Below, in pieces: positions 1 to 14,341 of a stretch of 14,341 bases of DNA. Within the stretch, counting starts at the first letter, position 1; the number at the start of each line of letters is the position of its first letter. The position numbers and the translations under genes are program-made. This stretch comes from a virus (Duplodnaviria > Heunggongvirae > Uroviricota > Caudoviricetes), in the IMG/VR virus record IMGVR_UViG_2703718829_000006, positions 1 to 14,341 of that record; one strand, given 5' to 3'. Under the pieces are notes generated by a model, which worked only from the letters and a program-made list of their open reading frames with translations, was not told where the DNA came from and searched no databases.

Positions 1-1170
1 GTGGCCCTCAGTGATACCAAACTTCGTAGCATCAATGGTAAGCCCTACAGCGGCGCACCCGAAGTCACAGATGGTGACGGTTTGAGTGTGCGTATTACTC
101 CGACTGGAACGATTACATTTCAGCATCGATATCGCTGGAACGGTAAGCCTGTTCGCCTCTCTGTCGGCCGGTATCCTGCAATGTCCCTCAAAGAGGCCCG
201 CGTTATCGTCGGTGAGATGCGCGAATTGTACCTCAAGGGGCTAAACCCTAAAAATTATTTTGCCAAAGAAGATGGCGAGCTAACGCTCAAAGAGTGCCTG
301 GATCAGTGGTGGACTAAGTATGTTGAAACGCTGAAGCCTAATACCCAGACGCTGTATAAGTCGGTTGTGTACAACACCATGTACACAGAGTTCCCGGACG
401 CACCGGTCGTAAACATCCCCGTTTCGGCTTGGGTAAGGTTCTTCGACAAGCAGGAGAAGAAAAACGGGAAAAAGGCTCGGGTGCTGCTGCTCCAACTCCG
501 ATCCGTAATGAACTGGTGTATCAGCCGTCAGCTGATCCCTTCGTGCGAGGTGCTGAAACTCAGCGTTAAGACCATCGGCAAGAAACCAGACGTTGGTAGC
601 CGGGTACTCACTTATACCGAGCTGGCAAAAATCTGGTTAGCGCTGGAAAACAATAAGGTCGTTAGCTCCAATAAGGTTCTTCACCAGTTGCTGTTGCTCT
701 GGGGTGCGCGATTATCCGAACTGCGCCTGGCCACCGCAAGTGAGTTCAATATGGGCGATCTGATTTGGACGACGCCAGCCGAGCATTCCAAAATGGGAAA
801 TGTTATTCGTCGGCCTATATTCGACCAGGTTAAACCTTACATTGAAAGGCTTCTCAATGCTGGGAACGATATTCTTTTCCCGGGTCAGGAACTGGACAAG
901 GCTATAGATCGCTCCTCAGCCAATCTCTACATGAAAAAGTTAAGGGATAAAATTGATATACCGGAATGGCGAACCCACGACTTCAGGCGTTCTCTGGTAA
1001 CGAATTTGTCAGGGGAGGGGGTTATGCCCCATGTCACTGAAAAGATGCTGGGGCATGAACTTGGTGGTGTGATGGCGGTGTATAACAAACACGACTGGCT
1101 GGTGGAGCAGAAAGACGCTTATGAGCTTTATGCCGATAAAGTGTTCTGGCACGTCAAACAGCTCGGTTAA
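1..1170 (+). CDS. Tyrosine recombinase / phage integrase, P4-like family. It starts with GTG at the first base of the window, so the true 5' end and any upstream att/tRNA cannot be seen.
   Basis: 389-aa ORF. The N-terminus (MALSDTKLR...GDGLSVRITPTGTITFQHRYRWNGKPVRLSVGRYPAMSLKEAR) is typical of the arm-binding domain of P4-type integrases. The C-terminus has the catalytic-core pattern HDFRRS...GHELGG...AVYNKHDW with a terminal tyrosine. Confidence 0.9.
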   Translation: MALSDTKLRSINGKPYSGAPEVTDGDGLSVRITPTGTITFQHRYRWNGKPVRLSVGRYPAMSLKEARVIVGEMRELYLKGLNPKNYFAKEDGELTLKECLDQWWTKYVETLKPNTQTLYKSVVYNTMYTEFPDAPVVNIPVSAWVRFFDKQEKKNGKKARVLLLQLRSVMNWCISRQLIPSCEVLKLSVKTIGKKPDVGSRVLTYTELAKIWLALENNKVVSSNKVLHQLLLLWGARLSELRLATASEFNMGDLIWTTPAEHSKMGNVIRRPIFDQVKPYIERLLNAGNDILFPGQELDKAIDRSSANLYMKKLRDKIDIPEWRTHDFRRSLVTNLSGEGVMPHVTEKMLGHELGGVMAVYNKHDWLVEQKDAYELYADKVFWHVKQLG

Positions 1171-1339
1171 CGCCTCCTTCGGCTATCCATTTCATAACGG
1201 CTTTTCTGCTATACCGCGTCGGGTACGTTAAAACTGGCTGAGGGAATCCGTGGTCTTTGCGTAAGCGCCATACTGCTGTTTTTTTCTTTTTGAGCAGGTC
1301 GAAAACTTCCTGTTCTTCCATAAAATCAGTAGTAGTCAT
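1154..1339 (-). CDS. Excisionase / AlpA-family small DNA-binding protein (Xis-like).
   Basis: 61 aa counted from the internal ATG at 1339, which has a GAGGA Shine-Dalgarno about 6 nt upstream on the minus strand. The pattern DF..E.....K.TAVWRLRKDHGFPQPV....RYSRKAVMKWI fits AlpA/Xis-type winged helix regulators. The 3' end overlaps the integrase 3' end by 17 bp in convergent orientation. Confidence 0.7.
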   Translation of the reverse strand: MTTTDFMEEQEVFDLLKKKKTAVWRLRKDHGFPQPVLTYPTRYSRKAVMKWIAEGGVNRAV

Positions 1340-1392
1340 GATTTTCCTCGTTGTTAAAGTCTTTATTGTCCGCAACTCTATTCTATGGTGAT

Positions 1393-1632
1393 TCACGCCG
1401 CCCGCATCGAGCGCAGCTTCTTAATGTGCTCGCTCTGTTCCAGTTCAGCCCGGATCTGCCGGGCCTCATCATGGTCGAGCGGTTCAAAGTCGTTGTTAAA
1501 CCTGTACATGCTGGCCGTATTTATCCGTCCTTGGCGCCAGTAGCACACCGTTCTGGCGTCACAGCTGTGAATAATGACTGGCCATCCGTGACCGTCTGGG
1601 AAAATCTGGCCTCGCTGAATGAGTTGAAACAC
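1393..1632 (-). CDS. Hypothetical small early-left protein (79 aa).
   Basis: ORF sits in the minus-strand operon between the TraR-like gene and xis. No family recognised. Confidence 0.45.
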   Translation of the reverse strand: MFQLIQRGQIFPDGHGWPVIIHSCDARTVCYWRQGRINTASMYRFNNDFEPLDHDEARQIRAELEQSEHIKKLRSMRAA

Positions 1633-1635
1633 GGC

Positions 1636-1854
1636 TCACCTCTGATGCTTCCCGCGCTTTTCCGCTTCGTCCTGGCAGTCAGCGCAGCGCTGACAACCTG
1701 CCACCAGTTCCCGGCGCCGTGCCGGAATTGCCTCTCCACAATCAATGCAGTGCGTAGCCGATACCGCGTTATGGTTGATGCGATGGGCCTGTATCGCCTT
1801 ATCGCGGAGAAGCTCTTCTAATTCGCTGGCCTGATCGATAATTTCTGCGCTCAT
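1636..1854 (-). CDS. TraR/DksA-family C4 zinc-finger protein.
   Basis: 72 aa with a Cys-X2-Cys ... Cys-X2-Cys arrangement (CIDCGEAIPARRR...GCQRCADCQ), typical of phage TraR/DksA-like proteins. The stop overlaps the start of the upstream methyltransferase gene. Confidence 0.8.
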   Translation of the reverse strand: MSAEIIDQASELEELLRDKAIQAHRINHNAVSATHCIDCGEAIPARRRELVAGCQRCADCQDEAEKRGKHQR

Positions 1855-2378
1855 GCTGCCTCCATGGTTCCGATCCGCTTTAACTCACTCAGCGAAACGG
1901 ACGTGATGATGCGTCTTGGCGTGATGAATGGCCGCCAGATGAACAAAATTGAGTCCTTTGGGTTGCTCTGCCGTTTACCTGTAGCCGACGCCGGCACAAA
2001 CTGAATGCGTCCGCCGGTTATCAGGCGAATCTCATCAGCGCTCTGCATCGCGGAGAGAAACCATCCGGTAGAGATATCTGCGGGAAGCAGAATGACTACC
2101 GTCTGGGACTGCGCTTTACATTGCTCGGTGGCTTTCTCCACCCACGGCCCGATATCGGAATAGGGTGGGTTGCACCAGATCGCGCCGTACGACGACCATT
2201 CACGACTCAGCGAGTTATCCAGCTCAGTGAGATAGTGAGCGCATAGCGCATTACGTTCAGAGGCAGCAGCATCCAGCCAGAAGCCAAACTCAAGATCGAG
2301 CGCGTTAAATATTTCAATCGGCGTTTGCCAGTAGTCTCTTTCATTTTTCGGTGTGTTCGATCCGCCGTAGTCAGTCAC
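1851..2378 (-). CDS. Phage DNA N6-adenine methyltransferase (Dam-like orphan MTase).
   Basis: 175 aa with WQTP...FGF.LDAAAS and the catalytic NPPY motif (WCNPPYSDIGPWV), the hallmark of phage Dam-family N6-adenine methyltransferases. 4-bp ATGA overlaps with both neighbours indicate operon coupling. Confidence 0.85.
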   Translation of the reverse strand: MTDYGGSNTPKNERDYWQTPIEIFNALDLEFGFWLDAAASERNALCAHYLTELDNSLSREWSSYGAIWCNPPYSDIGPWVEKATEQCKAQSQTVVILLPADISTGWFLSAMQSADEIRLITGGRIQFVPASATGKRQSNPKDSILFIWRPFITPRRIITSVSLSELKRIGTMEAA

Positions 2379-2809
2379 AATGCCGTCTCCATTTCGTCGA
2401 TATAAAGGCCAGCAGCAATCAGCCGGCGGCGCCGGGCTGCTTTCTCAATACATTCCCGGCGATTACCCTCTGCCGCCAGAGCCATAGAACGCCGAGTGAA
2501 CAGGCGTGTTTTACCCTGAGGGGTAATAACCTTTGGCTTTGTGATCAGGTCAAAGGTGCGGTCACAGATGCCGTCCTCGTTGAGCCAGGTTTCCGATGTA
2601 ACCAGCTGTGCAATGCGCCCTTCGCCTCTGGTCAGGCCGTTCGCGACACGGTTAAATTCGATGAGCGTTACGCCGAATTTCTCTGCGATTTCGCTGCCAG
2701 TTACCGGGCGACCGCGCGTCTGAATCATCCAGATAACGCGCTCGCGGAGTCCGGAGAATTTCCCGGCCTTACCTGGTCTGCGGTAAAATGGTGTGCGTTT
2801 CATTTCCAC
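2375..2809 (-). CDS. Hypothetical protein, possibly DNA-binding.
   Basis: 144 aa, basic, with a helix-turn-helix-like stretch (VTGSEIAEKFGVTLIEFNRVANGL). Translationally coupled to the downstream Dam gene. No family recognised. Confidence 0.55.
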   Translation of the reverse strand: MEMKRTPFYRRPGKAGKFSGLRERVIWMIQTRGRPVTGSEIAEKFGVTLIEFNRVANGLTRGEGRIAQLVTSETWLNEDGICDRTFDLITKPKVITPQGKTRLFTRRSMALAAEGNRRECIEKAARRRRLIAAGLYIDEMETAL

Positions 2810-2829
2810 TGCTCCCAGAGTATTTCGGC

Positions 2830-3312
2830 CTATTTGATCATCAGAGACGGCTTGCCGAGCTTTATTTGCGCCCCGGGCACGTCAATACCAGCTTCGATTT
2901 GATGCTTGATAGCCAGTTTGTCTGGTTTGATATTCGTCTCGTACTCGATGAATTCAGGCGGTAATGCGCTGGCGTCAGTAATCTCGACAGATTTAGAAGG
3001 TGCGCGAACCGTTACCTGATGAACTCCGGCTTTAAGTGATTTTTTACCGATGGTTTCCAATGATTTAGCGACATACTCCTTCATGCTTGCCACGCGGTTT
3101 TCGGCGGCTTTTGCACGCTCAATAAGGCGCTTACTTTCTTCTTTCAGAGCCTCGGCATAAGCAGATTCGTTTTTGCAGACCGCAAGAATCTGCTCAACCT
3201 TTGCTTCCAGCTCCCACTCAATTCCATCAAGAGTGTCGGCTATCATTTCAGGCTCCATGCCGGAGTCAGTCAGCCTGGCGAAATCGTTGGCGATCTGATA
3301 AAGGGCTGTCAT
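2830..3312 (-). CDS. Siphovirus Gp157-family protein, commonly found next to RecT/Erf recombinases.
   Basis: 160 aa, acidic and coiled-coil-rich, with an N-terminus ([11 protein letters not shown]...) resembling Gp157-family proteins. Sits immediately downstream of recT with a 4-bp overlap. Confidence 0.65.
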   Translation of the reverse strand: MTALYQIANDFARLTDSGMEPEMIADTLDGIEWELEAKVEQILAVCKNESAYAEALKEESKRLIERAKAAENRVASMKEYVAKSLETIGKKSLKAGVHQVTVRAPSKSVEITDASALPPEFIEYETNIKPDKLAIKHQIEAGIDVPGAQIKLGKPSLMIK

Positions 3313-4223
3313 TGGGTAACCTCTTCAAATTTGGCTTTACACTTGGCGTAAACGGCCTGAACCTCTTGCTGTAGGCGCATTCCTGCGGTCATTTTGTAGG
3401 CCGTCTGGAAATGGGTTTTGAGGTCATTCATGTTTTCTGCCTGCTTCATGTCTTCGCAAAGCGAGCGGACGGTGTTAATCAGCTCTTGCTCAGCGTTTTC
3501 TTTCGACTGGATAACTTCACTTTCAGGCGTGTAAGACATAACCGGTTCGGTAAAAATGCCTTCGCTCTCGTTAAGCATGTCCACGGCATTATCGAGACGG
3601 TCAGCGCGCGGCCAGTATTTATAGGCGCGCTTCACGATCGTCTTTCGGGCCATCTCAGACCAGAAGTTGACCCAGGGGCCTTTCGGGGATGTACCGGCTT
3701 TACTCACCTTCCTGATTTCTTCAATTTCGGCGATGCTCATCTCTTCAGTCAGGTAGTCGCCGTCTGATGTTTTAACTGTGCAGTAGCCTCCGATAACGGC
3801 GCCACGCTCTTCAGGTGTGGCGAATGGGTTGTATTTGTGGGCCGGTGCTTTATCGAGGCCAATAGTTTCGTAAGCGTCGTTCGCATGAACCAGCTTGCAT
3901 TGGCCCCACTTAATGACGCCGGCTGATTGGGCTATATGCAAAAGCCCCATATAGCTGATATCAAGGCATACCATGCCGTCACGCGGTACTAAGTAGGCCA
4001 GCTTGCTGGCAGGGTTTAAGCTGATCCCAACCGCTGCCACGTTAATGATTGCGTTCTGAGCGCTGACAGGATTGCTAACTGCCGTTTTGGCTAACGTGTC
4101 ATTGCGCTGAAATAGCTGAATCGCAAACTGGCACTCTTTTGCCCATGTCAGGCTCTGGTCAGTAAGAGCGCTGGTAAACAGCGGCTCTTGCTGTTTAACG
4201 AACTGAATAAGATCGAAGCTCAT
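3309..4223 (-). CDS. recT: RecT-family single-strand annealing recombinase.
   Basis: 304 aa. The block [24 protein letters not shown]...AVDMLNESE closely parallels the conserved RecT block of Rac RecT (GPWVTHWEEMAKKTAIRRLFKYLP...AVSMDEKE). Confidence 0.9.
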
Positions 4224-4516
4224 AGCCCCTCCTCAATGTTGACTTGATGCCGGGCAATGACTTCCACCATGTAGCGCACGTTTTCCGCCATGCGCTCCTG
4301 AAACTCAACATCGTCATCAAACGCACGGGTAATGGCTTTTTTGCTGGCCCCGTGGCGTTGCAAATGATCGATGCATAGCGATTCAAACAGGTGCTGGGGC
4401 AGGCTTTTTTCCATGTCGTCTGCCAGTTCTGCCTCTTTCTCTTCACGGGCGAGCTGCTGGTAGTGACGCGCCCAGCTCTGAGCCTCAAGACGATCCTGAA
4501 TGTAATAAGCGTTCAT
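4220..4516 (-). CDS. gam: Gam, host RecBCD nuclease inhibitor (short GamS-length form).
   Basis: The 98-aa product ([37 protein letters not shown]...) is nearly identical, as recalled, to the C-terminal short form of lambda Gam. 4-bp overlap with recT. Confidence 0.9.
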
Positions 4517-4592
4517 GGCTGAACTCCTGAAAATGGCTGTGAAAATATCGCCCGCGAAATGCCAGGCTGATTAGGAAAACAGGAAAGGGGGG

Positions 4593-4799
4593 TTAGTGAT
4601 TCAGGCCGTTACCGCGTCCGTCGAGAAAAACTTCCACGAGCAAATCACGGGTATAAGTGCGCTCGATGCCGCGATGCAGATAAAGCCGTCCGCGTAAATT
4701 AGCTGATGCAGTCCAGGTACCATCTTTGTGTTTGACCAGCATTCCTGGCATGACCGCGCCGCGATTAACGGTCTGTGTTCCGTAATGTTGATGAACCAT
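4593..4799 (-). CDS. Hypothetical small protein in the kil/cIII position upstream of gam. The start is uncertain: the ORF is open up to a TTG at 5003.
   Basis: The ATG at 4799 is preceded on the minus strand by AGGAG with a 5-nt spacer, giving a 68-aa product (MVHQHYGTQTVNRGAV...). The longer 136-aa frame starts at TTG with no Shine-Dalgarno and has an arginine-rich N-terminus. No family recognised. Confidence 0.4.
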   Translation of the reverse strand: MVHQHYGTQTVNRGAVMPGMLVKHKDGTWTASANLRGRLYLHRGIERTYTRDLLVEVFLDGRGNGLNH

Positions 4800-5052
4800 A
4801 AAAACTCCTGCCCGTAAGCTGGGCTGCTGAACATATAGAGACTTCTGCGCGTATTCAGGCGGTGGATGGCCGCCGGTTGTCATAACTAAGCCGCCTCGTT
4901 GAAGCGACTGAGGTATGAAATGTTGAGTTAATTTCAGCTGGTCACACCGACGTTCACGCGTCCGTTTCACCCCTCGCACTCCCCGAAGCCTGCCGAAATT
5001 CAAACTGCGGATCTAAGCGGTCATCGCAACGGTGAATCAGGTAGTTGCCGTA

Positions 5053-5135
5053 TCGTTGTGTTGTTGCGACGAACTTATTTAAAACTATAGTTGTTTTATC
5101 GTCAACAACAAAAGTTGTTTTATTGGTTGTTTTAG
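5053..5135. promoter_or_regulatory. Putative OL operator / pL region: a cluster of GTTGTT-containing repeats.
   Basis: Direct copies of RGTTGTTTTA at 5089-5098, 5113-5122 and 5125-5134, another GTTGTT at 5060-5065, and an inverted AACAAC at 5104-5109. The same motif recurs in the cI-cro intergenic region. Confidence 0.45.
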
Positions 5136-5245
5136 ATATAACTGATTGTATTTAGGATGGATTTATTTTGTGACTTGAATCGCATAGCGATAACTGAAGC
5201 GAGGTTATGGTGGTTTTTTTAACGGTGTGTGTGATGAGGGGAGGG

Positions 5246-5273
5246 CAAAAGAAAACCCGGCACGGTGACCGGG
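5246..5273 (-). terminator. Putative intrinsic terminator downstream of cI.
   Basis: Plus-strand sequence CCCGG-cacggtga-CCGGG is preceded by caaaagaaaa. On the minus strand this reads as a hairpin followed by a T-rich tract, about 120 nt past the cI stop. Confidence 0.45.
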
Positions 5274-5394
5274 ATTCTTACGCCGTTAGGTAAAGATATT
5301 ATTGCGGTGGCTTAATATTACTACCTAGAGCAAAGATAGGAATTAGTTCTTTACTGAATGAGCACAATGCCCAGTTGATAATTTTTAATTGGTA

Positions 5395-6084
5395 CTACCC
5401 ATGCTTCCTATATGTCTGCGGCATGCTCCCAATAACCTTACCGAAGATGAACACCCGGTTCATCTCGTCTTTCTCGATCGGGTCCCACGGTGAGTAGCTT
5501 TTGTTATCAGAGATGACCAGCAGCTTATCCTTCATCATTTGCAGGCGCTTTACATGGGCTGTGTCGTCGTACAGAAACGCATAGATACCATCACCGTCGA
5601 AAGATTTAACTGTGATATCAACGAACAGCAGATCACCTGGTTCGATCGTTCCTGACATGCTGTCACCACGCACGTTAATGATGCGGATATTTTCCGCCTT
5701 CCTACCATCGAACATGTGACGAGCATCGTCAAACGAGTACTCAACCGAGCGTAGAACTTCTACAAACTCACGGTTGATGACTCCCGGCCCAGCACTGACT
5801 TCTATATCAAGAACGTCAATCTTGAAGTATTTGGAATGGCTGACAGTTGATTGTATTGGTTGCACTGTACTGTCTGACATATTTCCAACGCCAGAAGATA
5901 ACCATTCTGCGCGCACACCCAAAGCGTTCGCGATCTCCACGATTTTAGTTGTTTGATTAGCTTTCCCTGTTTCGATTTTCTGAATAGCAGCCTGGCTAAC
6001 CCCGACCAAATCCCCAAGCGCCTTTTGTGTAAGGCCTCGCGCTAATCTGGCTTCTTTAAGTCTTTCTGAGAGTGTTGTTTTCAT
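5395..6084 (-). CDS. cI: CI-like prophage repressor (N-terminal HTH plus C-terminal S24 LexA-like autopeptidase domain).
   Basis: HTH region LSERLKEARLARGLTQKALGDLVGVSQAAIQKIETGK. The C-terminal domain has GDSM (catalytic Ser) and a VKRL lysine typical of S24 self-cleaving repressors. Start placed at the ATG at 6084; the ORF is open up to 6150, but that upstream ATG lies inside the operator palindrome. Confidence 0.88.
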   Translation of the reverse strand: MKTTLSERLKEARLARGLTQKALGDLVGVSQAAIQKIETGKANQTTKIVEIANALGVRAEWLSSGVGNMSDSTVQPIQSTVSHSKYFKIDVLDIEVSAGPGVINREFVEVLRSVEYSFDDARHMFDGRKAENIRIINVRGDSMSGTIEPGDLLFVDITVKSFDGDGIYAFLYDDTAHVKRLQMMKDKLLVISDNKSYSPWDPIEKDEMNRVFIFGKVIGSMPQTYRKHG

Positions 6085-6161
6085 AGTCCAAATGTACAAC
6101 CAAGGTTTTATTCTATCAAACGAAAATGGTTGTTGACTAAAAACAACCATAGTTTTAATCT
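6072..6161. promoter_or_regulatory. Putative OR operators and pR promoter between cI and cro.
   Basis: 25-bp dyad ATGGTTGTT-gactaaa-AACAACCAT at 6126-6150. A further GTTGTTTT at 6074-6081 abuts the cI start codon. A -35-like TTGACT at 6133-6138 and a -10-like TAATCT at 6156-6161 lie upstream of the cro Shine-Dalgarno GGAGG. Confidence 0.5.
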
Positions 6162-6188
6162 TGATTCAAATTAACCACGGAGGTTGTT

Positions 6189-6419
6189 ATGAACCCAGCT
6201 ATCAAAACAGCGATCAATATCGTTGGTTCACAAAAGAAACTGGGCGCTGCTTGCGAAGTTTCACAGCAGGCCGTCTATAAGTGGCTTCACAACAAAGCAA
6301 AGGTATCCCCTGAACATGTCGGCAGCATTGTTACGGCTACTGGTGGAGTAGTGAAGGCATACCAGATTCGCCCGGATCTTCCGAAGTTGTTTCCACACAC
6401 CGAAAAGAACGCAGCTTAA
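6189..6419 (+). CDS. cro: Cro-like HTH regulator (YdaS/Cro family).
   Basis: 76 aa, divergent from cI, with a strong GGAGG Shine-Dalgarno. HTH segment QKKLGAACEVSQQAVYKWL. Position and pattern match YdaS-type Cro analogues. Confidence 0.8.
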   Translation: MNPAIKTAINIVGSQKKLGAACEVSQQAVYKWLHNKAKVSPEHVGSIVTATGGVVKAYQIRPDLPKLFPHTEKNAA

Positions 6420-6488
6420 ATTTCCATTTCACGCTCTTTAACAATAAGCAATCAACTTAACAGTCAATTCAAACTAAAGGAGTCAATT

Positions 6489-7028
6489 ATGCAACCACTT
6501 CCATACCAACAGACTAGCGGATTTAGCCCGACTGCGGTGATAAATCGTTCTCAAACAAAACAGGTGCTAGGCCACGAAAAAATCCGTGATGCCGTCCGCG
6601 CCTGGTCGGCTGTAGATAATCAGGATGTCGTTGCCACACTCATTGTGAATGAGTATCGGGAGCAGGGCGGCGGCACCATCGATTTCCCTGATGATGTCAG
6701 CCGTGCACGCCAGAAGCTGTTCCGCTTCCTCGATAACAAATTCGATTCTGAAAAATACCGAAATAACGTGCGTGAACTGACCCCGGCAATTCTGGCGGTA
6801 CTACCGCTGGAATATCGCGGTTACCTGGTTGAGCAGGATAGCTTCATGGCTAGGTTGGCTGAAATGGAAAAGGAACTCAGTGAGGCAAAACAGGCTGTCA
6901 TTCTCAACGCACCACGCCACCAGAAACTGAAGGAAATTAGTGAAGGTATTGTGTCGATGTTTCGTGTGGACCCAGATCTGGCTGGTCCATTGATGGCGAT
7001 GGTTACTACCATGCTGGGGGCGATATGA
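6489..7028 (+). CDS. YdaT-like protein in the cII position (putative CII functional analogue).
   Basis: 179 aa with an AAGGAG Shine-Dalgarno, immediately after the Cro/YdaS-like gene and before O. Motifs EYREQGGG and LTPAILAVLP resemble YdaT-family proteins, as recalled. Confidence 0.55.
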   Translation: MQPLPYQQTSGFSPTAVINRSQTKQVLGHEKIRDAVRAWSAVDNQDVVATLIVNEYREQGGGTIDFPDDVSRARQKLFRFLDNKFDSEKYRNNVRELTPAILAVLPLEYRGYLVEQDSFMARLAEMEKELSEAKQAVILNAPRHQKLKEISEGIVSMFRVDPDLAGPLMAMVTTMLGAI

Positions 7029-7114
7029 CAGGTTCAGAAATGGCGAAAGCCGGTCTGCTGGAACAGAACCGACTTTCAGGTGCAAATCGTAACACACTCA
7101 TTGCGGGAGGAATT

Positions 7115-8044
7115 ATGGCAAACACTGCTGAGATATTCAATTTTCCAGTGCCGGATGCGGCACAAAAGGAGCCGCGCGTGGCAGATCTCGATGATGGTTA
7201 TACGCGCATTGCAAATGAGTTGCTGGAAGTTGTGATGCTGGCCGGATTAACACAGCACCAGCTTCTGGTCTTCCTGGCTGTCATGCGCAAAACATATGGT
7301 TTTAATAAAAAACTGGATTGGGTGAGCAACGAGCAACTGTCCGAATTGACCGGGATATTGCCGCACAAGTGTTCTGCTGCAAAAAGTGTTCTGGTAAAGC
7401 GTGGGATTTTGATTCAGAGCGGGCGGAATATCGGTATTAATAATGTGGTCAGTGAATGGTCAACATTACCCGAATCAGGTAAGAAAAATAAAGTTTACCT
7501 GAAAGAGGTAAATTTACCTGAATCAGGTAAGAAAAGTTTACCCAAATCAGGTAAAGGCGTTTACCCGAATCAGGTAAACACAAAAGACAAACTAACAAAA
7601 GACAATATAAAACCTTTTTCGTCCGAGAATTCTGGCGAATCCTCTGACCAGCCAGAAAACGATCTTCCTGTGGTGAAACCAGATGCTGCAATTCAGAGCG
7701 GCAGCAAGTGGGGGACAGCAGAAGACCTGACCGCCGCAGAGTGGATGTTTGACATGGTGAAGACCATCGCGCCATCAGCCAGAAAACCGAATTTTGCTGG
7801 GTGGGCTAACGATATCCGCCTGATGCGTGAACGTGACGGACGTAACCACCGCGACATGTGCGTGCTGTTCCGCTGGGCATGCCAGGACAACTTCTGGTCC
7901 GGTAACGTGCTGAGTCCGGCCAAACTCCGCGACAAGTGGACCCAGCTCGAAATCAACCGAAACAAGCAACAGGCTGGCGTGACAGCTAGCAAACCAAAAC
8001 TCGACCTGACAAACACAGACTGGATTTACGGGGTGGATCTATGA
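7115..8044 (+). CDS. O: Replication initiation protein O (lambda O family).
   Basis: Start placed at the ATG at 7115, preceded by GGGAGG. The N-terminal domain (VADLDDGYTRIANELLE...MRKTYGFNKK) resembles lambda O. The iteron origin is embedded mid-gene, as in lambda. The stop overlaps the start of P. Confidence 0.85.
   Translation: MANTAEIFNFPVPDAAQKEPRVADLDDGYTRIANELLEVVMLAGLTQHQLLVFLAVMRKTYGFNKKLDWVSNEQLSELTGILPHKCSAAKSVLVKRGILIQSGRNIGINNVVSEWSTLPESGKKNKVYLKEVNLPESGKKSLPKSGKGVYPNQVNTKDKLTKDNIKPFSSENSGESSDQPENDLPVVKPDAAIQSGSKWGTAEDLTAAEWMFDMVKTIAPSARKPNFAGWANDIRLMRERDGRNHRDMCVLFRWACQDNFWSGNVLSPAKLRDKWTQLEINRNKQQAGVTASKPKLDLTNTDWIYGVDL
7466..7620. repeat. Origin of replication (ori-lambda-like): five 17-bp iterons plus an adjacent A-rich region, inside the O gene.
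   Basis: TTACC-N7-GGTAA palindromic iterons at 7466-7482, 7495-7511, 7514-7530, 7538-7554 and 7561-7577, followed by the A-rich tract 7578-7620. Confidence 0.8.
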
Positions 8045-8742
8045 AAAACATCGCCGCACAGATGATTAACTTTGACCGTGAGCAGATGCGTCGGATCGCC
8101 AACAACATGCCGGAACAGTACGACGAAAAGCCGCAGGTACAGCAGGTAGCGCAGATCATCAATGGTGTGTTCAGCCAGTTACTGGCAACTTTCCCGGCGA
8201 GCCTGGCTAACCGGGACCAGAACGAACTGAACGAAATCCGCCGCCAGTGGGTTCTGGCTTTCCGGGAAAACGGGATCACCTCGATGGAGCAGGTTGACGC
8301 AGGAATGCGCGTAGCCCGTCGGCAGAATCGACCATTCCTGCCATCACCCGGGCAGTTTGTTGCCTGGTGCCGAGAAGAAGCATCCGTTAACGCCGGGCTG
8401 CCAAACGTCAGCGAGCTGGTTGATATGGTCTATGAGTATTGTCGGAAGCGTGGCCTGTATCCGGATGCAGAGTCTTATCCGTGGAAATCAAACGCGCACT
8501 ACTGGCTGGTTACCAACCTGTACCAGAACATGCGGGCCAATGCGCTGACTGACGCGGAATTACGGCGCAAGGCTGCCGATGAACTGACTTGTATGACCGC
8601 GCGAATTAACCGTGGTGAGGCGATACCTGAACCAGTAAAACAACTTCCTATCATGGGCGGCAGACCTCTAAATCGTGCACAGGCTCTGGCGAAGATCGCA
8701 GAAATCAAAGCTAAGTTCGGACTGAAAGGAGCCAGTGTATGA
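8041..8742 (+). CDS. P: Replication protein P (DnaB helicase loader).
   Basis: 233 aa, essentially matching lambda P along its length as recalled (MKNIAAQM.NFDREQMRRIANNMPEQYDEKPQVQQVAQIINGVFSQLLATFPASLANRDQNE...). Confidence 0.95.
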   Translation: MKNIAAQMINFDREQMRRIANNMPEQYDEKPQVQQVAQIINGVFSQLLATFPASLANRDQNELNEIRRQWVLAFRENGITSMEQVDAGMRVARRQNRPFLPSPGQFVAWCREEASVNAGLPNVSELVDMVYEYCRKRGLYPDAESYPWKSNAHYWLVTNLYQNMRANALTDAELRRKAADELTCMTARINRGEAIPEPVKQLPIMGGRPLNRAQALAKIAEIKAKFGLKGASV

Positions 8743-9038
8743 CGGGAAAAGAAGCAATTATTCATTACCTGGGGACGCATAAGAGCTTCTGTGCGCAGGA
8801 CGTTGCTGCGGTAACAGGCGCAACAGTAACCAGCATAAATCAGGCTGCGGCTAAAATGGCGCGGACAGGAATCTTAGTCATTGATGGTAAGGTCTGGCGA
8901 ACGGTGTATTACCGGTTCGCTACCAGGGAAGAACGGGAAGGAAAGGTGAGCACGAACCTGATTTTTAAGGAGTGTCGCCAGAGTGCCGCGATGAAGCGGG
9001 TTTTATTTGTTTATGCGGCGGCGGGAGGAAATCAGTGA
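8739..9038 (+). CDS. ren: Ren (exclusion protein Ren-like).
   Basis: 99 aa (MTGKEAIIHYLGTH.SFCA.DVAA.TGATVTSINQAAAKMAR...VWRTVYYRFATREEREGK), highly similar to lambda Ren as recalled. 4-bp overlap with P. Confidence 0.9.
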   Translation: MTGKEAIIHYLGTHKSFCAQDVAAVTGATVTSINQAAAKMARTGILVIDGKVWRTVYYRFATREEREGKVSTNLIFKECRQSAAMKRVLFVYAAAGGNQ

Positions 9039-9130
9039 GGTTGACGATAACTCGTGTCTGGAGTTATATTTTGCCCGTTGCCGCAAAATCGGCACACGGG
9101 ATTGGCGTCCCGGAATACTACTCAACGCAT

Positions 9131-9151
9131 ACCGCGTTAAGCGGTTTTTTT
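9131..9151 (+). terminator. Intrinsic terminator after ren (tR2-like position).
   Basis: ACCGC-gttaa-GCGGT hairpin followed by TTTTTTT. Confidence 0.6.
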
Positions 9152-9250
9152 ATGCGCTAAGCACGGCTACGCCCAAATTATGGTGGGCTGTGTGAGGGCT
9201 TCTTCGGGAGCGCCGGGTTTGAGTAGCCGGTTACGCCAACCTTGCACAGT

Positions 9251-9283
9251 TCACCACCAGTCGATTGGCGTCGTTGGTGGTGA
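9251..9283. promoter_or_regulatory. Perfect 9-bp inverted repeat with a 15-bp spacer, just upstream of the Bro-N gene.
   Basis: TCACCACCA (9251-9259) and TGGTGGTGA (9275-9283), about 25 bp upstream of the ATG at 9308. Could be an operator or a 5'UTR hairpin. Confidence 0.4.
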
Positions 9284-9307
9284 TGGTTAACCTGATGAGG
9301 TGATACT

Positions 9308-9916
9308 ATGACTACTCAATTAGCATTCCACAAAACGACTTTTACCCCAATTTGCCACAATAACAGAATTTGGCTTACTGCCACTGAAGTTGGTTTAGCT
9401 CTGGAATATGCGGACGATAAAGCAGTTCAGCGCATTTACTCTCGTCACTCAGATGAATTTACAGATATGATGACAAGGGTGGTCAAAGTGACCACCCCTC
9501 GTGGAATGCAGGAGTCTCGAGTATTTAGCCTTCGCGGAGCCCATTTGATCGCCATGTTTGCACGAACTCCTGTAGCCAAAGAGTTCCGTCGCTGGGTTCT
9601 GGATATTCTCGATCGAGAAGTTCAACAATCCCCAATCATAAAACAATTCACTGATAACGAACTTTGCACACTTGCTTGGTTGTGGCGAGCTGGGGATGCG
9701 ATGTTAACCGCCTGCCAGAACGTTACTCCTCTTCTTCAGGTTGCGGAGCATCGTGAAGCTGGTCGCTTCACTTCTATCGAGCAAGAATATCCCCAGATAC
9801 TCAATAAGGCACAGGCAATCCTTGCCAGAGAAACGGCACATGTAAAATTCCGGCCGTGGCAGGATGATAAGTGGAGTCGAGTTTTGCCGCATTTACGTTC
9901 GGATCGATTACAGTAG
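9308..9916 (+). CDS. Bro-N domain protein (antirepressor/Roi-like family).
   Basis: 202 aa with a GAGGTG Shine-Dalgarno. The N-terminal half fits the Bro-N fold pattern (F....NNRIWLTATEVGLALEY.D......R.......T.GG.Q....I.E.G.Y.LI..S....A..F..WV...). The C-terminal half is unassigned. Confidence 0.8.
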   Translation: MTTQLAFHKTTFTPICHNNRIWLTATEVGLALEYADDKAVQRIYSRHSDEFTDMMTRVVKVTTPRGMQESRVFSLRGAHLIAMFARTPVAKEFRRWVLDILDREVQQSPIIKQFTDNELCTLAWLWRAGDAMLTACQNVTPLLQVAEHREAGRFTSIEQEYPQILNKAQAILARETAHVKFRPWQDDKWSRVLPHLRSDRLQ

Positions 9917-10377
9917 ATTCCAATTAACAATGAGAAACACATAGCCACCCCGTGGTATTGAAACCATATAATGTTGGATTTGAAAACAGATCTTTTTCCA
10001 TGTATTAATAACTACATCCCCGCGAGTGATTCAAAAAGGAGGGCCCAATTTTGTCCGAGTTTTTGTATTCCCCCGCATGCCGCTGCGGAGCACTACATCT
10101 GAGTGTCTGACTAGGGGATAAAATTAGACTGGATAGTGAGAAGAAAGTGGCGTGCTAGGCTGTGCCGAGTGCTACCAGTACACCCTGGGGGTGTGCAGCT
10201 TTCGCCGAGACTGTAGTGGGTATCGGTTAATGCACGAAAAACCGAGAGGTCAGACAACCAATTTGCCGTAGGATTGTTTCCGGTGCGATACCGGTGTACT
10301 AACTGAAAGCAATGCGAAAAAGCATAAACTCGGTCCTTCAGTCGCCCTACACACTATTTACTAAGAAGGGCTAAAGC

Positions 10378-10734
10378 ATGGATACAATTATCACATGGAT
10401 GGGAGATCGTCTGTTGGGGTGGATAACAAACAAATCCGATCTGCGGCAGAGGGCAATCACTGGATTAACTCCTGCGATTTGTTCAACAATTTTATATACT
10501 GAAAAATTAAAACGTGGTGAGCCTAATAACCCAAACGAAGAAGAAAAACTTTATAGGCTTTGGTATGAAGCGTCTTCCCAAGTCGTAGACTTTGATCGAG
10601 AGCTGGCTAAAAGATGTTTAGATAAATCAGAATATTGGCTTCATTCTGAATTATATAGCCCTGAGAAAGTTGAAGAGCTAAACATTTCTTTGGTTGGTAT
10701 GAAGGCAACGCTTGAAGGAATAAAGCACAATTAA
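10378..10734 (+). CDS. Hypothetical AT-rich orphan protein (118 aa), accessory/moron gene.
   Basis: Clean ORF with an AAGAAGGG Shine-Dalgarno-like sequence. Visibly more AT-rich than the flanking phage genes. No recognised motif. Followed by a hairpin plus T-run at 10865-10888. Confidence 0.55.
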   Translation: MDTIITWMGDRLLGWITNKSDLRQRAITGLTPAICSTILYTEKLKRGEPNNPNEEEKLYRLWYEASSQVVDFDRELAKRCLDKSEYWLHSELYSPEKVEELNISLVGMKATLEGIKHN

Positions 10735-10864
10735 AACCTTTGATTTGCGATAATCAACTCGCCATAATCATGTCATCGGAGCCTGAACAACTCCGGTGAC
10801 TTCTGCGCTAAACGGGGACGTTTATGCGCACACACAATCCAAACTCTCTTCTCCCTCCACAGAT

Positions 10865-10888
10865 GCAGAAATGCACCTGCGTTTTTTT
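10865..10888 (+). terminator. Putative weak intrinsic terminator closing the accessory insert.
   Basis: GCAG-aaatgcac-CTGC followed by G and TTTTTTT, upstream of the ybcN start. Confidence 0.4.
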
Positions 10889-10921
10889 GCATCCAACGTT
10901 TGACCTCTGCGGAGGTGAAGC

Positions 10922-11377
10922 GTGAACCTCCCACAAGACGGTATCAAATTGCATCGCGGTAACTTCACCGCTATCGGTCAGCAGATCCAGCCTTATCTGG
11001 AGGACGGCAAATGCTTTCGCATGGTGCTTAAACCGTGGCGCGAAAGACGCAGTCTTTCCCAGAATGCACTCAGCCACATGTGGTACAGCGAAATCAGTGA
11101 GTACCTCATCAGCAGGGGGAAATCGTTCGCTACTGCAGCATGGGTAAAAGATGCTCTCAAACACACATACCTCGGTTATGAAACCAAGGACCTGGTTGAT
11201 GTCGTAACCGGCGAAATCACTACGATCCAGTCGTTACGCCATACCTCCGATCTTGATACCGGAGAGATGTATGTCTTCCTGTGTAAGGTTGAAGCCTGGG
11301 CGATGAATATTGGCTGCCGCCTGACTATTCCGCAGAGCTGCGAGTTCCAGCTGCTGCGCGACAAGCAGGAGGCGTAA
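10922..11377 (+). CDS. ybcN: NinB-family protein (DLP12 YbcN-like, described as a DNA base-flipping protein).
   Basis: 151 aa, GTG start with a GGAGGTG Shine-Dalgarno. The [12 protein letters not shown] motif matches the NinB RSL.QN motif, and the overall sequence matches DLP12 YbcN as recalled. Confidence 0.8.
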
Positions 11378-11547
11378 TGACTACACCGCTTATTCGGGTC
11401 ATGAACGGACACATCTACAGAGTACCAAATCGTCGTAAGCGTAAGCCTGAGCTGAAGCCATCCGAAATACCAACACTGCTAGGGTATACCGCCAGCCTGG
11501 TTGATAAAAAATGGTTGCGACTGGCAGCAAGGAGGAATCATGGCTGA
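11377..11547 (+). CDS. ninE: NinE (small nin-region protein, 56 aa). Not in the supplied ORF track because it is short.
   Basis: The ATG overlaps the ybcN stop (TAATG). Translation [56 protein letters not shown] matches NinE as recalled. The 3' end overlaps the ybcO start. Confidence 0.75.
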   Translation: MTTPLIRVMNGHIYRVPNRRKRKPELKPSEIPTLLGYTASLVDKKWLRLAARRNHG

Positions 11548-11830
11548 TTTGAGAAAAGCAGCGCGTGGTCGGGAATGCCAGGTAAGAATCCCTGGCGTAT
11601 GTAATGGCAATTCTGAGACGTCTGTACTGGCACATATCCGGCTGGCTGGATTGTGCGGTACCGGTATCAAACCGCCAGACCTGATTGCCACCATTGCATG
11701 TTCTGCCTGTCACGACGAAATCGACCGCCGCACACATTTTGTCGATGCTGAGTATGCAAAAGAATGCGCGCTGGAAGGTATGGCGAGAACACAGGTTATC
11801 TGGCTGAAAGAGGGGGTTATTAAGGCGTGA
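11540..11830 (+). CDS. ybcO: YbcO-like protein (DLP12 YbcO family, described as a putative nuclease).
   Basis: Start at the ATG at 11540, preceded by AAGGAGGA. The 96-aa product ([33 protein letters not shown]...[11 protein letters not shown]) has conserved Cys/His and matches DLP12 YbcO as recalled. Confidence 0.85.
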
Positions 11831-12189
11831 ATACCTACAGCATCACATTACCCTGGCCTCCGAGCAATAATCGCTATTACCGCCATAATCGCGGGCGCAC
11901 GCACATCAGCGCAGAGGGGCAGGCATACCGCGATAACGTCGCCCGAATCATTAAAAACGCAATGCTGGATATCGGCCTGGCTATTCCTGTGAAAATCCGC
12001 ATTGAGTGTCACATGCCGGATCGCCGTCGCCGTGACCTGGATAATCTGCAAAAAGCTGCTTTTGACGCACTTACCAAAGCAGGTTTCTGGCTGGATGATG
12101 TTCAGGTCGTTGATTACCGTGTTGTGAAGATGCCCGTTACCAAAGGTGGGAAGCTGGAGCTGACCATCACTGAACTGGGAGATGAATGA
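11827..12189 (+). CDS. rusA: RusA Holliday junction resolvase.
   Basis: 120 aa ([89 protein letters not shown]), near-identical to E. coli RusA as recalled. GTG start overlapping the ybcO stop. Confidence 0.95.
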
Positions 12190-12326
12190 TGTTTGAGTCT
12201 TATATGGCAGAACGTCTTCGCCGCCGCTGGGTGCGCCTGCGCTTATATCATTTTCCCGGTTCTGTTTTGACCGATTACCGAATACTGAAGAATTACGCCA
12301 AAACACTGAAAGGAGCTGCCGCATGA
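12186..12326 (+). CDS. ylcG: YlcG-like small protein (46 aa). Not in the ORF track because it is short.
   Basis: ATG overlaps the rusA stop. Translation [46 protein letters not shown]. Position after rusA matches the DLP12 gene order. The stop overlaps the start of the Q-like gene. Confidence 0.6.
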
Positions 12327-13012
12327 ATACCCAATATTTACAGTATGTCCGCGAGCAACTCATGGTGGCTACCGCTGACTTGAGCGGAGCAACGAAAGGC
12401 CAGCTTGAAGCCTGGCTGGAGCATGCACAATTTGATACTGGTACATACAAACGAAAGAAGCGACGCATTCTGGATGAGGTAACTGGCAAGATTATTATGC
12501 TGGATAATCCGCCGATTTCCGGTAAACAGTCGTACGCAAAAGGTTCATCTGTCGCCCTGATCAGTCCGGTCGAGTTTTCAACCTCTTCATGGCGCCGCGC
12601 TGTTCTGTCTCTCGATGAGCATCAGAAAGCATGGTTGCTGTGGAGTTACAGTGAAAATATTCGCTGGGAGCATCAGGTTGCCATAACGCAGTGGGCATGG
12701 AGCGAGTTTAAGACTCTGTTGGGTACCAGAAAAATTGCAGGTAAGACACTGGAACGCCTGAAGAAGTTGATCTGGCTGGCGGCACAGGATGTGAAGAGCG
12801 AACTGGCAGGGCGTGAGGCTTATGAATACCAGGAACTGGCGTCACTGGTGGGAGTGACATCAAAAAACTGGTCTGAGACATTCACTGAACGCTGGGTTGC
12901 AATGAAGCACATTTTTCTACAGCTTGATAGCGAAGCTTTATTGCTTCTAACGAGAACACGTTCAAAACAAAAGGCGACATTTTCACAGCAAAATATTGCA
13001 AAACTGGATTAA
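12323..13012 (+). CDS. Putative late-gene antiterminator (Q-like). The call rests mainly on position.
   Basis: 229 aa, immediately upstream of the late regulatory region and lysis cassette, in the Q position of lambdoid genomes. Sequence is not lambda Q, and the family assignment was not verified. Confidence 0.55.
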   Translation: MNTQYLQYVREQLMVATADLSGATKGQLEAWLEHAQFDTGTYKRKKRRILDEVTGKIIMLDNPPISGKQSYAKGSSVALISPVEFSTSSWRRAVLSLDEHQKAWLLWSYSENIRWEHQVAITQWAWSEFKTLLGTRKIAGKTLERLKKLIWLAAQDVKSELAGREAYEYQELASLVGVTSKNWSETFTERWVAMKHIFLQLDSEALLLLTRTRSKQKATFSQQNIAKLD

Positions 13013-13194
13013 AAAAGCATATATTTCATATAAATCTGATATTTTGCCAATGTTGTACGCACTGGCAGTAATCCAAATTCAAGCTCGAGGTTTAAAGCCT
13101 TGGGCTTTTCTGTTTCTGGGCGGTGAGTATCCTTCCAACGTACCCCAGCCAGGGTGTCTTCAGCTGTTGAGTTGATATTGCTTAACCCTCTGTT

Positions 13195-13220
13195 GCCAGC
13201 TACATGCTGGCTTTTTTATT
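13195..13220 (+). terminator. tR'-like intrinsic terminator in the late promoter-proximal region (the target of Q antitermination).
   Basis: GCCAGC-tacat-GCTGGC hairpin followed by TTTTTTATT, between Q and the holin gene. Confidence 0.65.
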
Positions 13221-13322
13221 CCAGGCTTGCGGGGAGCATCAACTCCGTGCTTTGTCGTTAAATTACCCCGTGAGCCTGATTTCTGACATTTAACGTCCCG
13301 GCCTTTTGTCGGCGGCGAAACA

Positions 13323-13640
13323 TTGGCTATTCATATGCACGAAAAAGAGAGCCTTGCCGGAGCGTTCTGGCTCGTTTTGCTGATCATCGCAGGTTGGGGC
13401 GGTCTGGTCCGCTACCTGATAGATGTGAAGCAGAGTAAAGCAACGTGGAGTTGGATAAATGCTCTGGCTCAGATAGTGGTATCAGGATTCACCGGTGTTA
13501 TTGGTGGCCTGATCAGCATCGAAAGTGGATTCAGTATTTACATGATTCTCGCGACAGCGGGGATTAGTGGTGCGATGGGTTCGGTTGCACTGACGTACTT
13601 CTGGGAACGACTGACAGGGGTGAAAAATGCAAAATCTTAA
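13323..13640 (+). CDS. Holin (class I, three predicted transmembrane segments) with a possible dual start.
   Basis: 105 aa from TTG at 13323, with an in-frame ATG at 13335. Three hydrophobic stretches (AGAFWLVLLIIAGWGGLV, WINALAQIVVSGFTGVIGGLI, FSIYMILATAGISGAMGSVAL) and a charged C-terminus. Directly precedes and overlaps the endolysin gene. Confidence 0.75.
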   Translation: MAIHMHEKESLAGAFWLVLLIIAGWGGLVRYLIDVKQSKATWSWINALAQIVVSGFTGVIGGLISIESGFSIYMILATAGISGAMGSVALTYFWERLTGVKNAKS

Positions 13641-14103
13641 TCCTCAGCGTAAAGCTTTCCTCGATATGGTGGCATGGTCAGAAGGAACGGATAACGGACG
13701 GCAGAAAACCAGAAATCATGGTTATGACGTCATTGTTGGCGGAGAGCTATTCACTGATTACTCCGATCACCCTCGCAAACTTGTCACGCTAAACCCAAAA
13801 CTCAAATCAACAGCCGCAGGACGTTACCAGCTTCTTTCCCGTTGGTGGGATGCCTATCGTAAGCAGCTTGGCTTGAAAGATTTCTCTCCGAAAAGCCAGG
13901 ACGCAGTGGCATTGCAGCAGATTAAAGAGCGTGGCGCTTTACCGATGATTGATCGCGGTGATATTCGTCAGGCTATCGACCGTTGCAGCAATATCTGGGC
14001 GTCGTTACCTGGTGCAGGTTACGGTCAGTATGAACATAAAATCGGTGACCTGATTGCCCGATTTAAAGAGGCTGGTGGGGTGGTAAATGAAGTTGAGCTA
14101 TAA
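13627..14103 (+). CDS. R: Endolysin, lambda R-type lytic transglycosylase.
   Basis: 158 aa (NPQRKAFLDMVAWSEGTDNGRQKTRNHGYDVIVGGELFTDYSDHPRKLVTLNPKLKST.AGRYQLLSRWWDAYRKQLGLKDF...), near-identical to lambda R as recalled. Confidence 0.95.
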   Translation: MQNLNPQRKAFLDMVAWSEGTDNGRQKTRNHGYDVIVGGELFTDYSDHPRKLVTLNPKLKSTAAGRYQLLSRWWDAYRKQLGLKDFSPKSQDAVALQQIKERGALPMIDRGDIRQAIDRCSNIWASLPGAGYGQYEHKIGDLIARFKEAGGVVNEVEL

Positions 14104-14325
14104 GCTGGTTATCGCTGCATTCTTCTTTACTGTCATCGGTTCTTTCATCTGGTCTGCCAACCACTACTACAGCAAATATCAGCACGAAAAGAAACGTGCT
14201 GATGAGGCTGTACAAAATGCTGAATCTGCAACAGCCATTACCCGTAACGTCCTGCAATCACTGCAAATCGTCAATACAGTTATAGAGGTTAACCAGCATG
14301 CAAAACAGCAGATCGCACTGGAGTC
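14087..14325 (+). pseudogene. Rz-like i-spanin, truncated after about 80 codons.
   Basis: The N-terminus has a signal-anchor TM segment (LVIAAFFFTVIGSFIWSANHYY) like lambda Rz (...LSWAVNHYR...), which is about 150 aa. The reading frame runs into IS2-like terminal sequence at 14326 and stops at the window end. Confidence 0.65.
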
Positions 14326-14341
14326 TAGACTGGCCCCCTGA
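14326..14341. mobile_element. Probable left terminal inverted repeat of IS2 (first 16 bp only), inserted in the spanin gene.
   Basis: TAGACTGGCCCCCTGA matches the recalled IS2 terminus (TAGACTGGCCCCCTGAATCTCCAGACAACC...). Only 16 bp are inside the window, so this rests on memory of the IS2 end. Confidence 0.5.

Follow-up and report, generated by a model that had tools for sequence, protein, structure and literature searches.

A small accessory-type gene behind a predicted structured RNA in the early region of a lambdoid phage

The DNA considered here, hereafter called the window, is a stretch of 14,341 nucleotides (positions 1 to 14,341 of the IMG/VR virus record IMGVR_UViG_2703718829_000006) and corresponds, according to PHROG scans, to the early part of a lambdoid phage genome. 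The subject of this analysis is a gene of 118 codons on the plus strand (10378-10734, ATG to stop), referred to as ORF118 (ORF, open reading frame), together with the DNA directly 5' of it. Both are positioned between a gene for an Ant-like anti-repressor, the left neighbour (9308-9916, plus strand; phrog_245, phrog_7640), and ninB/orf, the right-hand backbone gene for a recombination mediator (10922-11377, plus strand; phrog_72, E 7e-52), the counterpart of which is annotated as NinB/YbcN in related records. A first-pass annotation had described ORF118 as an orphan and had taken the 460 bp upstream of it as a blank spacer. The latter view has to be abandoned. Covariation points to a gene for a structured non-coding RNA of about 335 nt (10016-10347, plus strand), which would at the same time constitute the 5' leader of ORF118. 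In related loci the same RNA precedes unrelated proteins, and ORF118 is tentatively regarded as an accessory gene that occupies one such interchangeable position.

ORF118 is judged to be a genuine gene under purifying selection, and not a chance ORF, because its ratio of nonsynonymous to synonymous substitution (dN/dS) amounts to only 0.06-0.10 in comparison to the orthologues of L023, L037 and L073, with synonymous sites being saturated. These orthologues are 73-75% identical at the DNA level, and the proportions of changed nonsynonymous and synonymous sites (pN and pS) are 0.13-0.16 and 0.67-0.72, respectively. The low ratio holds across three genera, and the full length of 118 codons is kept. 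The initial observation of an AT-rich composition distinct from that of the neighbours was borne out: the G+C content of ORF118 is 0.381 (0.319 at third codon positions), whereas the window as a whole has 0.493, the Ant-like gene 0.47 and ninB 0.52. The gene also has its own ribosome-binding site, as had been claimed; direct reading of the sequence places it at 10363-10370 on the plus strand (AAGAAGGG), with a GAAGG Shine-Dalgarno core at 10365-10369, 8 nt 5' of the ATG. The claim of a downstream terminator is correct only in part. A consensus scan does reveal a terminator-like hairpin followed by a T-run (10861-10891, hairpin 10861-10884, plus strand), but the hairpin starts 127 nt past the stop codon, in the conserved leader of ninB. 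From about position 10736 on, phage 82 and many further lambdoid phages have the same backbone, at 92-93% identity; the hairpin, being located within this shared nin backbone, therefore belongs to the ninB leader and is not a private part of the cassette. It is nevertheless probably the element at which the transcript of the RNA and ORF118 ends.

The upstream region was recognized by its similarity to the Klebsiella phage Kp4856-1, which is about 80% identical over 10016-10351 (megablast) and in which the order is the RNA, an intrinsic terminator, an ORF of 183 residues and then ninB. Homologues of the RNA were gathered by means of DNA patterns (IMG/VR and metagenomes), from E. coli genomes and by way of the cargo proteins, as the proteins encoded behind the RNA are called here. 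This yielded 24 distinct versions, 71-100% identical to that of the window. The structure is an RNAalifold consensus supplemented with four pairs read from the alignment, and all counts refer to the alignment of these 24 sequences. It comprises 91 pairs in 18 helices, which appear to be arranged in a 5' domain (about 10013-10122) and a 3' domain (about 10127-10343), both on the plus strand. The cells forming a standard pair amount to 96.5% for the predicted structure and to 33-48% for slid controls; compensatory changes are seen at 25 pairs, as compared to 3-8 in the controls, and the covariation score is 0.237 versus 0.046-0.066. Several G-U pairs are invariant, which identifies the plus strand as the transcribed one. 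Most versions terminate in a canonical terminator, for example CCGCCtcatGGCGGTATTTTTTT. Folding-energy z-scores were uninformative (z = -0.67 for the RNA itself) and gave no evidence of a structured leader before distant family members; because they are not significant, the case for the structure rests on covariation. On this basis, 10016-10347 is taken to encode a structured RNA, about 335 nt long and missing from curated libraries. A scan of the window at the gathering thresholds of Rfam 15 detected only isrK and C4, both elsewhere, a scan of 9850-10950 at E <= 10 yielded only noise and nothing within the RNA, and ARAGORN found no tRNA or tmRNA in it.

A putative sigma-70-type promoter for the RNA and ORF118 lies at 9980-10009 on the plus strand (-35 TTGAAA at 9980-9985, -10 ATTAAT at 10004-10009). 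Its hexamers keep their position in 19 diverged versions (TTGAAw or TTGTAT; TTTAAT, TTAAAT or ATTAAT), with a conserved spacing of 17-18 nt, while the sequence of the spacer changes. A simple promoter consensus scan did not list this site, and promoter activity is assigned to it on account of the conserved hexamers.

Several other interpretations of the upstream region were considered. A coding function is not supported, as the small ORFs at 9971-10102 (plus) and 10111-10257 (minus) are not conserved and longer frames are broken by indels of one or two bases. A mini-ORF of 19 codons in the 5' domain (10051-10110, plus), which has a strong AGGAGG, is probably non-coding as well; it carries a stop codon in the L007 lineage. 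A comparison to positions 24000-40751 of HK022 (blastn, word size 7) gave only chance matches of 12-17 nt, so that at the sequence level there is no put-like element of the HK022 type. The reading of the AUGC-GAAAAA-GCAU hairpin as a conserved boxB is unlikely, the loop being GAAUAC in L126, L127 and L129. Tandem repeats were absent from 9900-10800 at a score of 30 or higher, and the sole direct repeat that was found is one pair of 18 nt inside ORF118. With regard to attenuators and riboswitches, most of the versions that do not precede ORF118 have a terminator directly after the RNA and the start codon of the cargo within about 20 nt, and inspection revealed no convincing antiterminator pairing. 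The layout of a terminator followed by cargo would fit an attenuator or gate, an antitoxin-like RNA, or simply a conserved gene marking the edge of a recombination hotspot.

The proteins found behind the RNA are of various kinds. Next to ORF118 (no terminator after the RNA, gap of 30-33 nt) and a 3'-truncated allele of it, ORF66 (no terminator, 30 nt), there is a protein of 183 residues (L002, 3385-3936; terminator, 52 nt); one of 178 residues with hydrophobic N- and C-terminal segments (L102 and L050, 178 and 191 residues; terminator, 52 nt); one of 177 residues (L110; no terminator, 51 nt); and a pair of 95 and 162 residues (L003, 2866-3153 and 3331-3819; degenerate terminator remnant, 34 nt). 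In L011 there is no cargo at all, and the RNA with its terminator is followed by an ordinary nin-region gene. The RHNLLH motif of the 183-residue protein is of the Rx4H form and thus HEPN-like. Three of these other proteins show no similarity to ORF118 in hhalign comparisons; none of the other cargo proteins has a Pfam or PADLOC match of meaningful score, and where a PHROG is matched, its function is unknown. When the search in IMG/VR started from the proteins, the RNA was found upstream of ORF118 in 24 of 24 loci, of the 183-residue family in four of five and of the 178-residue family in eight of nine; it also precedes ORF118 in Enterobacter and Obesumbacterium. In the window the gap between the RNA and ORF118 is 30 nt, and there is no terminator in the versions of E. 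coli, Enterobacter and Obesumbacterium. Since such a gap holds neither a terminator nor room for a promoter, transcription of ORF118 would start at the promoter of the RNA or at a site 5' of it, and the RNA would form the 5' leader of the messenger. Judged from this anatomy, the RNA and ORF118 are most likely co-transcribed.

The constancy of this arrangement could be taken to mean that RNA and protein form a functional pair, in which the RNA is an antitoxin or regulator of ORF118, in the manner of type III toxin-antitoxin systems or of AbiF with RCd22, or in which ORF118 binds the RNA. The order of promoter, RNA, intrinsic terminator and small ORF is indeed that of ToxIN and of prophage-borne abortive infection (Abi) loci such as AbiF with RCd22 (10.1101/2025.04.15.648962), a likeness that applies in full to the 183- and 178-residue cargo. 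The terminator between RNA and toxin is present there and before these two cargoes, yet it is absent before ORF118 in all lineages. Moreover, the antitoxin RNA of ToxIN is an array of tandem direct repeats and its partner an endoribonuclease of the ToxN/AbiQ type, whereas here a single fold of 335 nt with multiple helices precedes a predicted helical bundle without a ToxN domain. Similarly, unlike AbiF, ORF118 has no Abi_2 domain (Pfam to E 10), nor does the RNA contain the abiF motif (Rfam to E 10). Contrary to type III and Abi loci, one RNA family stands before several unrelated proteins, at least four in number, and it persists without any cargo in L011 and in intact form where ORF118 is truncated. 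Conversely, a relative of ORF118 with 51% identity (L070, 55-656) has no RNA upstream, and neither has any of the distant relatives tested, which indicates that the link between RNA and ORF118 is not obligatory. A dedicated pair is accordingly considered improbable. The varied cargo and the intact RNA beside a truncated ORF118 rather suggest that the RNA is an autonomous conserved unit and ORF118 one interchangeable cargo. As to the L070 relative, the most distant of the close ones, it overlaps the end of a gene similar to HolE (DNA polymerase III theta) and adjoins an xis-like gene and int.

The RNA is present in 159 of 5426 complete E. coli genomes (about 3%), always at full length and never annotated. 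Besides decayed prophages, it is carried by the cultured, plaque-forming phages Turner and IdasGreatGrand. Among 50,697 phage records it occurs in four, two of which also have ORF118. It is absent from the plasmids of PLSDB, and among the GTDB species representatives one RNA pattern gave no match while the other gave 10 matches outside Enterobacterales, which are chance matches by nhmmer. The truncated allele ORF66 (66 codons; L004, 2879-3079; phrog_8527) is found in about 62 of the 159 E. coli carriers, and further frameshifted derivatives exist; the RNA in these genomes is complete and 98-99% identical. ORF118 is thus dispensable for prophage carriage.

This raises the question whether ORF118 might be a decaying or non-functional ORF hitch-hiking behind a functional RNA, as the 3' deletion and the frameshifts next to a nearly unchanged RNA would suggest. 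Such an explanation seems hardly tenable in view of the low dN/dS and the maintenance of full length over three genera, and of the membership of ORF118 in an ancient wider family with invariant residues. The same data bear on the possibility that ORF118 is a housekeeping early gene, assisting phage replication, recombination or regulation as nin-region genes do. Its position in the early-right operon, between P, ren and ant on one side and ninB on the other, and the purifying selection acting on it agree with such a role. Nevertheless, most lambdoid phages do without ORF118, as the two records out of 50,697 illustrate, its slot is refilled by unrelated genes, its composition is atypical and it is truncated in many carriers, so that this explanation appears quite doubtful. 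A function in replication or morphogenesis is unlikely.

At the protein level, the description as an orphan without a recognisable family turned out to be wrong. ORF118 matches phrog_12412, a PHROG of unknown function, over its entire length (E 3.1e-69; residues 1-118 aligned with all 118 positions of the profile). Its close relatives form 21 clusters, which belong to Enterobacterales wherever a source is named (E. coli, Enterobacter bugandensis, Obesumbacterium proteus). A profile of 11 full-length homologues, searched against 1.84 billion cluster representatives at E <= 1e-3, retrieved a wider family of 349 representatives, mostly stand-alone proteins of 118-137 residues (about 125). The 11 homologues, 50-97% identical, share 44 invariant columns. 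An alignment of 38 sequences displays the motifs A..AL..A..ET..Y, E..L..LW..A and D..LA.RC..K..YW and the invariant residues A33, T37, Y40, W62, K83 and W87; we regard the wider family as ancient. None of the 53 family members scanned has a Pfam domain over the ORF118-like region. Scans of ORF118 itself against Pfam (to E 10), NCBIfam and PADLOC gave no match, a sequence-profile search of the PDB yielded nothing up to E 10, and literature searches with sequence strings and keywords found no description of either the RNA or the protein.

The AlphaFold (AF2) model obtained with the 38-sequence alignment as input is an up-down helical bundle with a mean predicted local distance difference test score (pLDDT) of 94.5 and a predicted TM-score (pTM) of 0.81. 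In this model no helix is uniformly hydrophobic, as judged by eye, in agreement with the earlier statement that a transmembrane segment is lacking. ORF118 is therefore modelled as a soluble, non-enzymatic-looking, generic four-helix bundle. Comparison of structures, which had been proposed as a way to place the protein, turned out to be uninformative and assigned no function: a Foldseek search with a first model (pLDDT 77) against the PDB and BFVD gave nothing below E 0.39, and a structural match at 9% identity is to be read as one of fold only, because de novo designed bundles score equally well. Two specific assignments were rejected. A HEPN ribonuclease is not supported, for the family alignments contain no conserved Rx4-6H, and HEPN toxins are matched by Foldseek only at E >= 0.7 with TM-scores of about 0.3. 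Neither is a phosphotransfer domain of the HPt or CheA-P1 type, which would carry a conserved phospho-accepting histidine on helix 2, whereas none of the invariant residues of the family is a histidine. Nor did any phage protein with a structural or housekeeping role turn up as a confident match, an outcome named at the outset as one that would speak against an accessory role.

A functional indication comes from relatives in which the domain is fused to other modules. The survey of fusions covered the best 150 of the 349 relatives, and about 22 of these 150 exceed 180 residues, which corresponds to about 15% being fused. Most of the fused relatives that were read carry the ORF118-like domain at the N-terminus, with a module of one of four kinds behind it. 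P0069 has a TIR domain (Pfam TIR_2, E 3.8e-18; also matched by the SAVED_TIR and ThsB-like models of PADLOC). P0055 and P0063 have a region matched by PDC-S60, a candidate model of PADLOC (E 8e-13), with weak additional matches to DUF4062 and TIR_2. Six others (P0078, P0116, P0119, P0125, P0153 and P0067) have two to four hydrophobic membrane segments, as judged by eye. Finally, P0162 has an alpha/beta-hydrolase-like domain with a GxSxG motif, and P0117 a comparable domain on the N-terminal side, both as weak matches. The PADLOC matches to TIR and PDC-S60 are confined to the C-terminal parts. The gene of the TIR fusion is located immediately 3' of a GmrSD type IV restriction gene; one membrane-segment fusion adjoins a gene with a helix-turn-helix domain, near ArdC, on a mobile element; and one stand-alone relative sits among genes for HigB, an M78 peptidase, a P4-cII-like protein and a Mu-type transposase. 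A single N-terminal domain combined with swappable C-termini of the effector type is typical of conflict systems. This pattern of fusions is the sole functional lead for ORF118, and an indirect one; in sequence, the fused forms are only about 25-30% identical to it.

It could be imagined on these grounds that ORF118 is a counter-defence decoy, that is, a stand-alone version of the N-terminal sensor or regulatory domain of host immune proteins, which binds and poisons these proteins or soaks up their trigger. The effector-type proteins are headed by the same domain, the phage copy is devoid of any effector part, and it lies in the early-right region, 3' of O and P. Against this, stand-alone forms predominate in the family and are found in ordinary bacterial chromosomes, and the identity to the fused forms is as low as stated above. 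Moreover, among the fused relatives retrieved none was identified as enterobacterial, so that no target was found in the host of the phage. A decoy function is therefore rather unlikely.

The explanation that we prefer, although tentatively, is that ORF118 is an accessory cargo gene, a "moron", of a lambdoid prophage and acts by binding in conflicts between phage and host or between phages. It is considered as cargo because the slot following the RNA holds unrelated proteins or none, because it is truncated to ORF66 in many carriers, and because of its G+C content of 0.38 as compared to 0.49. Binding of a partner in conflict is suggested because the same domain heads TIR and membrane proteins and, with weaker matches, DUF4062- and hydrolase-like proteins, and because the TIR fusion lies beside GmrSD. 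The transcript would start near 10015 from the promoter of the RNA, have a length of about 0.75-0.9 kb and end at the terminator-like hairpin at 10861-10884, and ORF118 would be translated from the 3' part of this RNA-led messenger. The four-helix bundle would then bind a protein or a small ligand, as could be expected from the fusions, the likeliest outcome being a benefit to the lysogen or prophage over competing phages by exclusion or a response of the abortive-infection type. The first-pass annotation had placed ORF118 with lysogenic-conversion, exclusion and toxin genes. The accessory type agrees with the swappable slot, the AT-richness, the truncation and the fusions, while the fold, being without an informative structural neighbour, adds nothing to it.

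Several points weigh against the binding of a partner in conflict. About 85% of the best 150 relatives are stand-alone proteins, and other stand-alone relatives are solitary, in ordinary chromosomal surroundings and without a conserved partner. The TIR fusion is the only domain call regarded as confident, the hydrolase and DUF4062 matches being weak. The 2023 release of PADLOC, with its models of known and candidate defence systems, has no match to ORF118. Finally, the ORF66 allele is also compatible with a marginal function.

A more far-reaching possibility, to which we attach a low probability, is that the RNA is the core of a modular prophage cassette, in which it would serve as sensor, gate or antitoxin, by read-through of the terminator or by direct binding, and control interchangeable effector-type cargo. 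The cargo would then comprise ORF118, the 183-residue protein with the RHNLLH motif and those proteins whose terminal segments are hydrophobic. Such a cassette would be an RNA-governed counterpart of retrons and type III toxin-antitoxin systems without a reverse transcriptase, and ORF118 would represent a new sensor or adaptor domain shared with TIR and membrane effectors. Retrons likewise combine a conserved structured RNA with variable effector-like genes behind it, some of which have hydrophobic segments of the membrane type. Here, in contrast, no reverse transcriptase was seen among the annotated, Pfam-tagged or PHROG-scanned neighbours, although no search was aimed at one, and the RNA matches no retron family of Rfam.

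With phage morons and the defence hotspots of P2 and P4 prophages (PMC9122126), the locus has in common a small, AT-rich, dispensable gene in a fixed slot between backbone genes, which is filled by unrelated genes in related phages. It differs from these hotspots in that the slot is bordered on the left by a conserved structured RNA with a promoter of its own instead of by a protein gene, that the cargo is without a separate promoter, and that no cargo protein matches a known defence family. The cataloguing of the protein in phrog_12412 and the moron in a variable slot as a kind of feature are already known; new are the structured RNA, the recognition of the wider domain family and its fusions to effector-type modules, and the architecture of RNA followed by cargo.

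If the interpretation is correct, the 349 clusters (at 50% identity) without a Pfam entry constitute a widespread, uncurated domain that may act as sensor or adaptor in bacterial immune proteins and to which the stand-alone phage copy offers an easy experimental entry. The RNA is a large, covarying molecule that is missing from Rfam and unannotated in about 3% of the complete E. coli genomes. To our knowledge, new large bacterial RNAs with such covariation are uncommon in so well-studied a host. The fixed layout of RNA and cargo suggests a reusable platform for the expression or control of prophage accessory genes. If, however, the RNA is merely a conserved flank and the role of ORF118 marginal, the latter is one more uncharacterised moron.

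The surroundings of the unit in the window are those of a lambdoid early region. Among the products recognized by the PHROG scans are a CI-like repressor (5395-6150, minus strand), O (7025-8044), P (8041-8742), Ren (8739-9038) and Q (12323-13012), as well as a Cro-like protein, a CII-like protein, RusA and an endolysin. The RNAs isrK (9079-9151, plus strand, 60.7 bits) and C4 antisense (9176-9261, plus strand, 72.7 bits), both detected with Rfam, lie directly 5' of the Ant-like gene; together they are recognized as an anti-repressor control module of the immI or IsrK-AnrP type, just to the left of the RNA-ORF118 unit. Which gene adjoins the RNA on this side is variable and differs in L001, L002, L003, L004 and L005. 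In phage Turner (L001, 467-2582) the unit is situated 3' of a QacE/EmrE-like gene and an ORF of 508 residues. This stretch resembles the emrE-ybcK region of the DLP12 prophage in E. coli K-12. Judged by the arrangement in Turner, the left neighbours are mosaic.

Two further observations concern antitermination. Between the repressor gene and a Kil-like ORF there is no visible N-like ORF but about 390 nt of AT-rich non-coding DNA with a terminator-like hairpin (5004-5394, minus strand). An rrn-type boxA (CGCTCTTTAACAA), with no obvious boxB, is present at 6431-6443, 3' of cro. It may be that antitermination in this phage proceeds in an unusual way.
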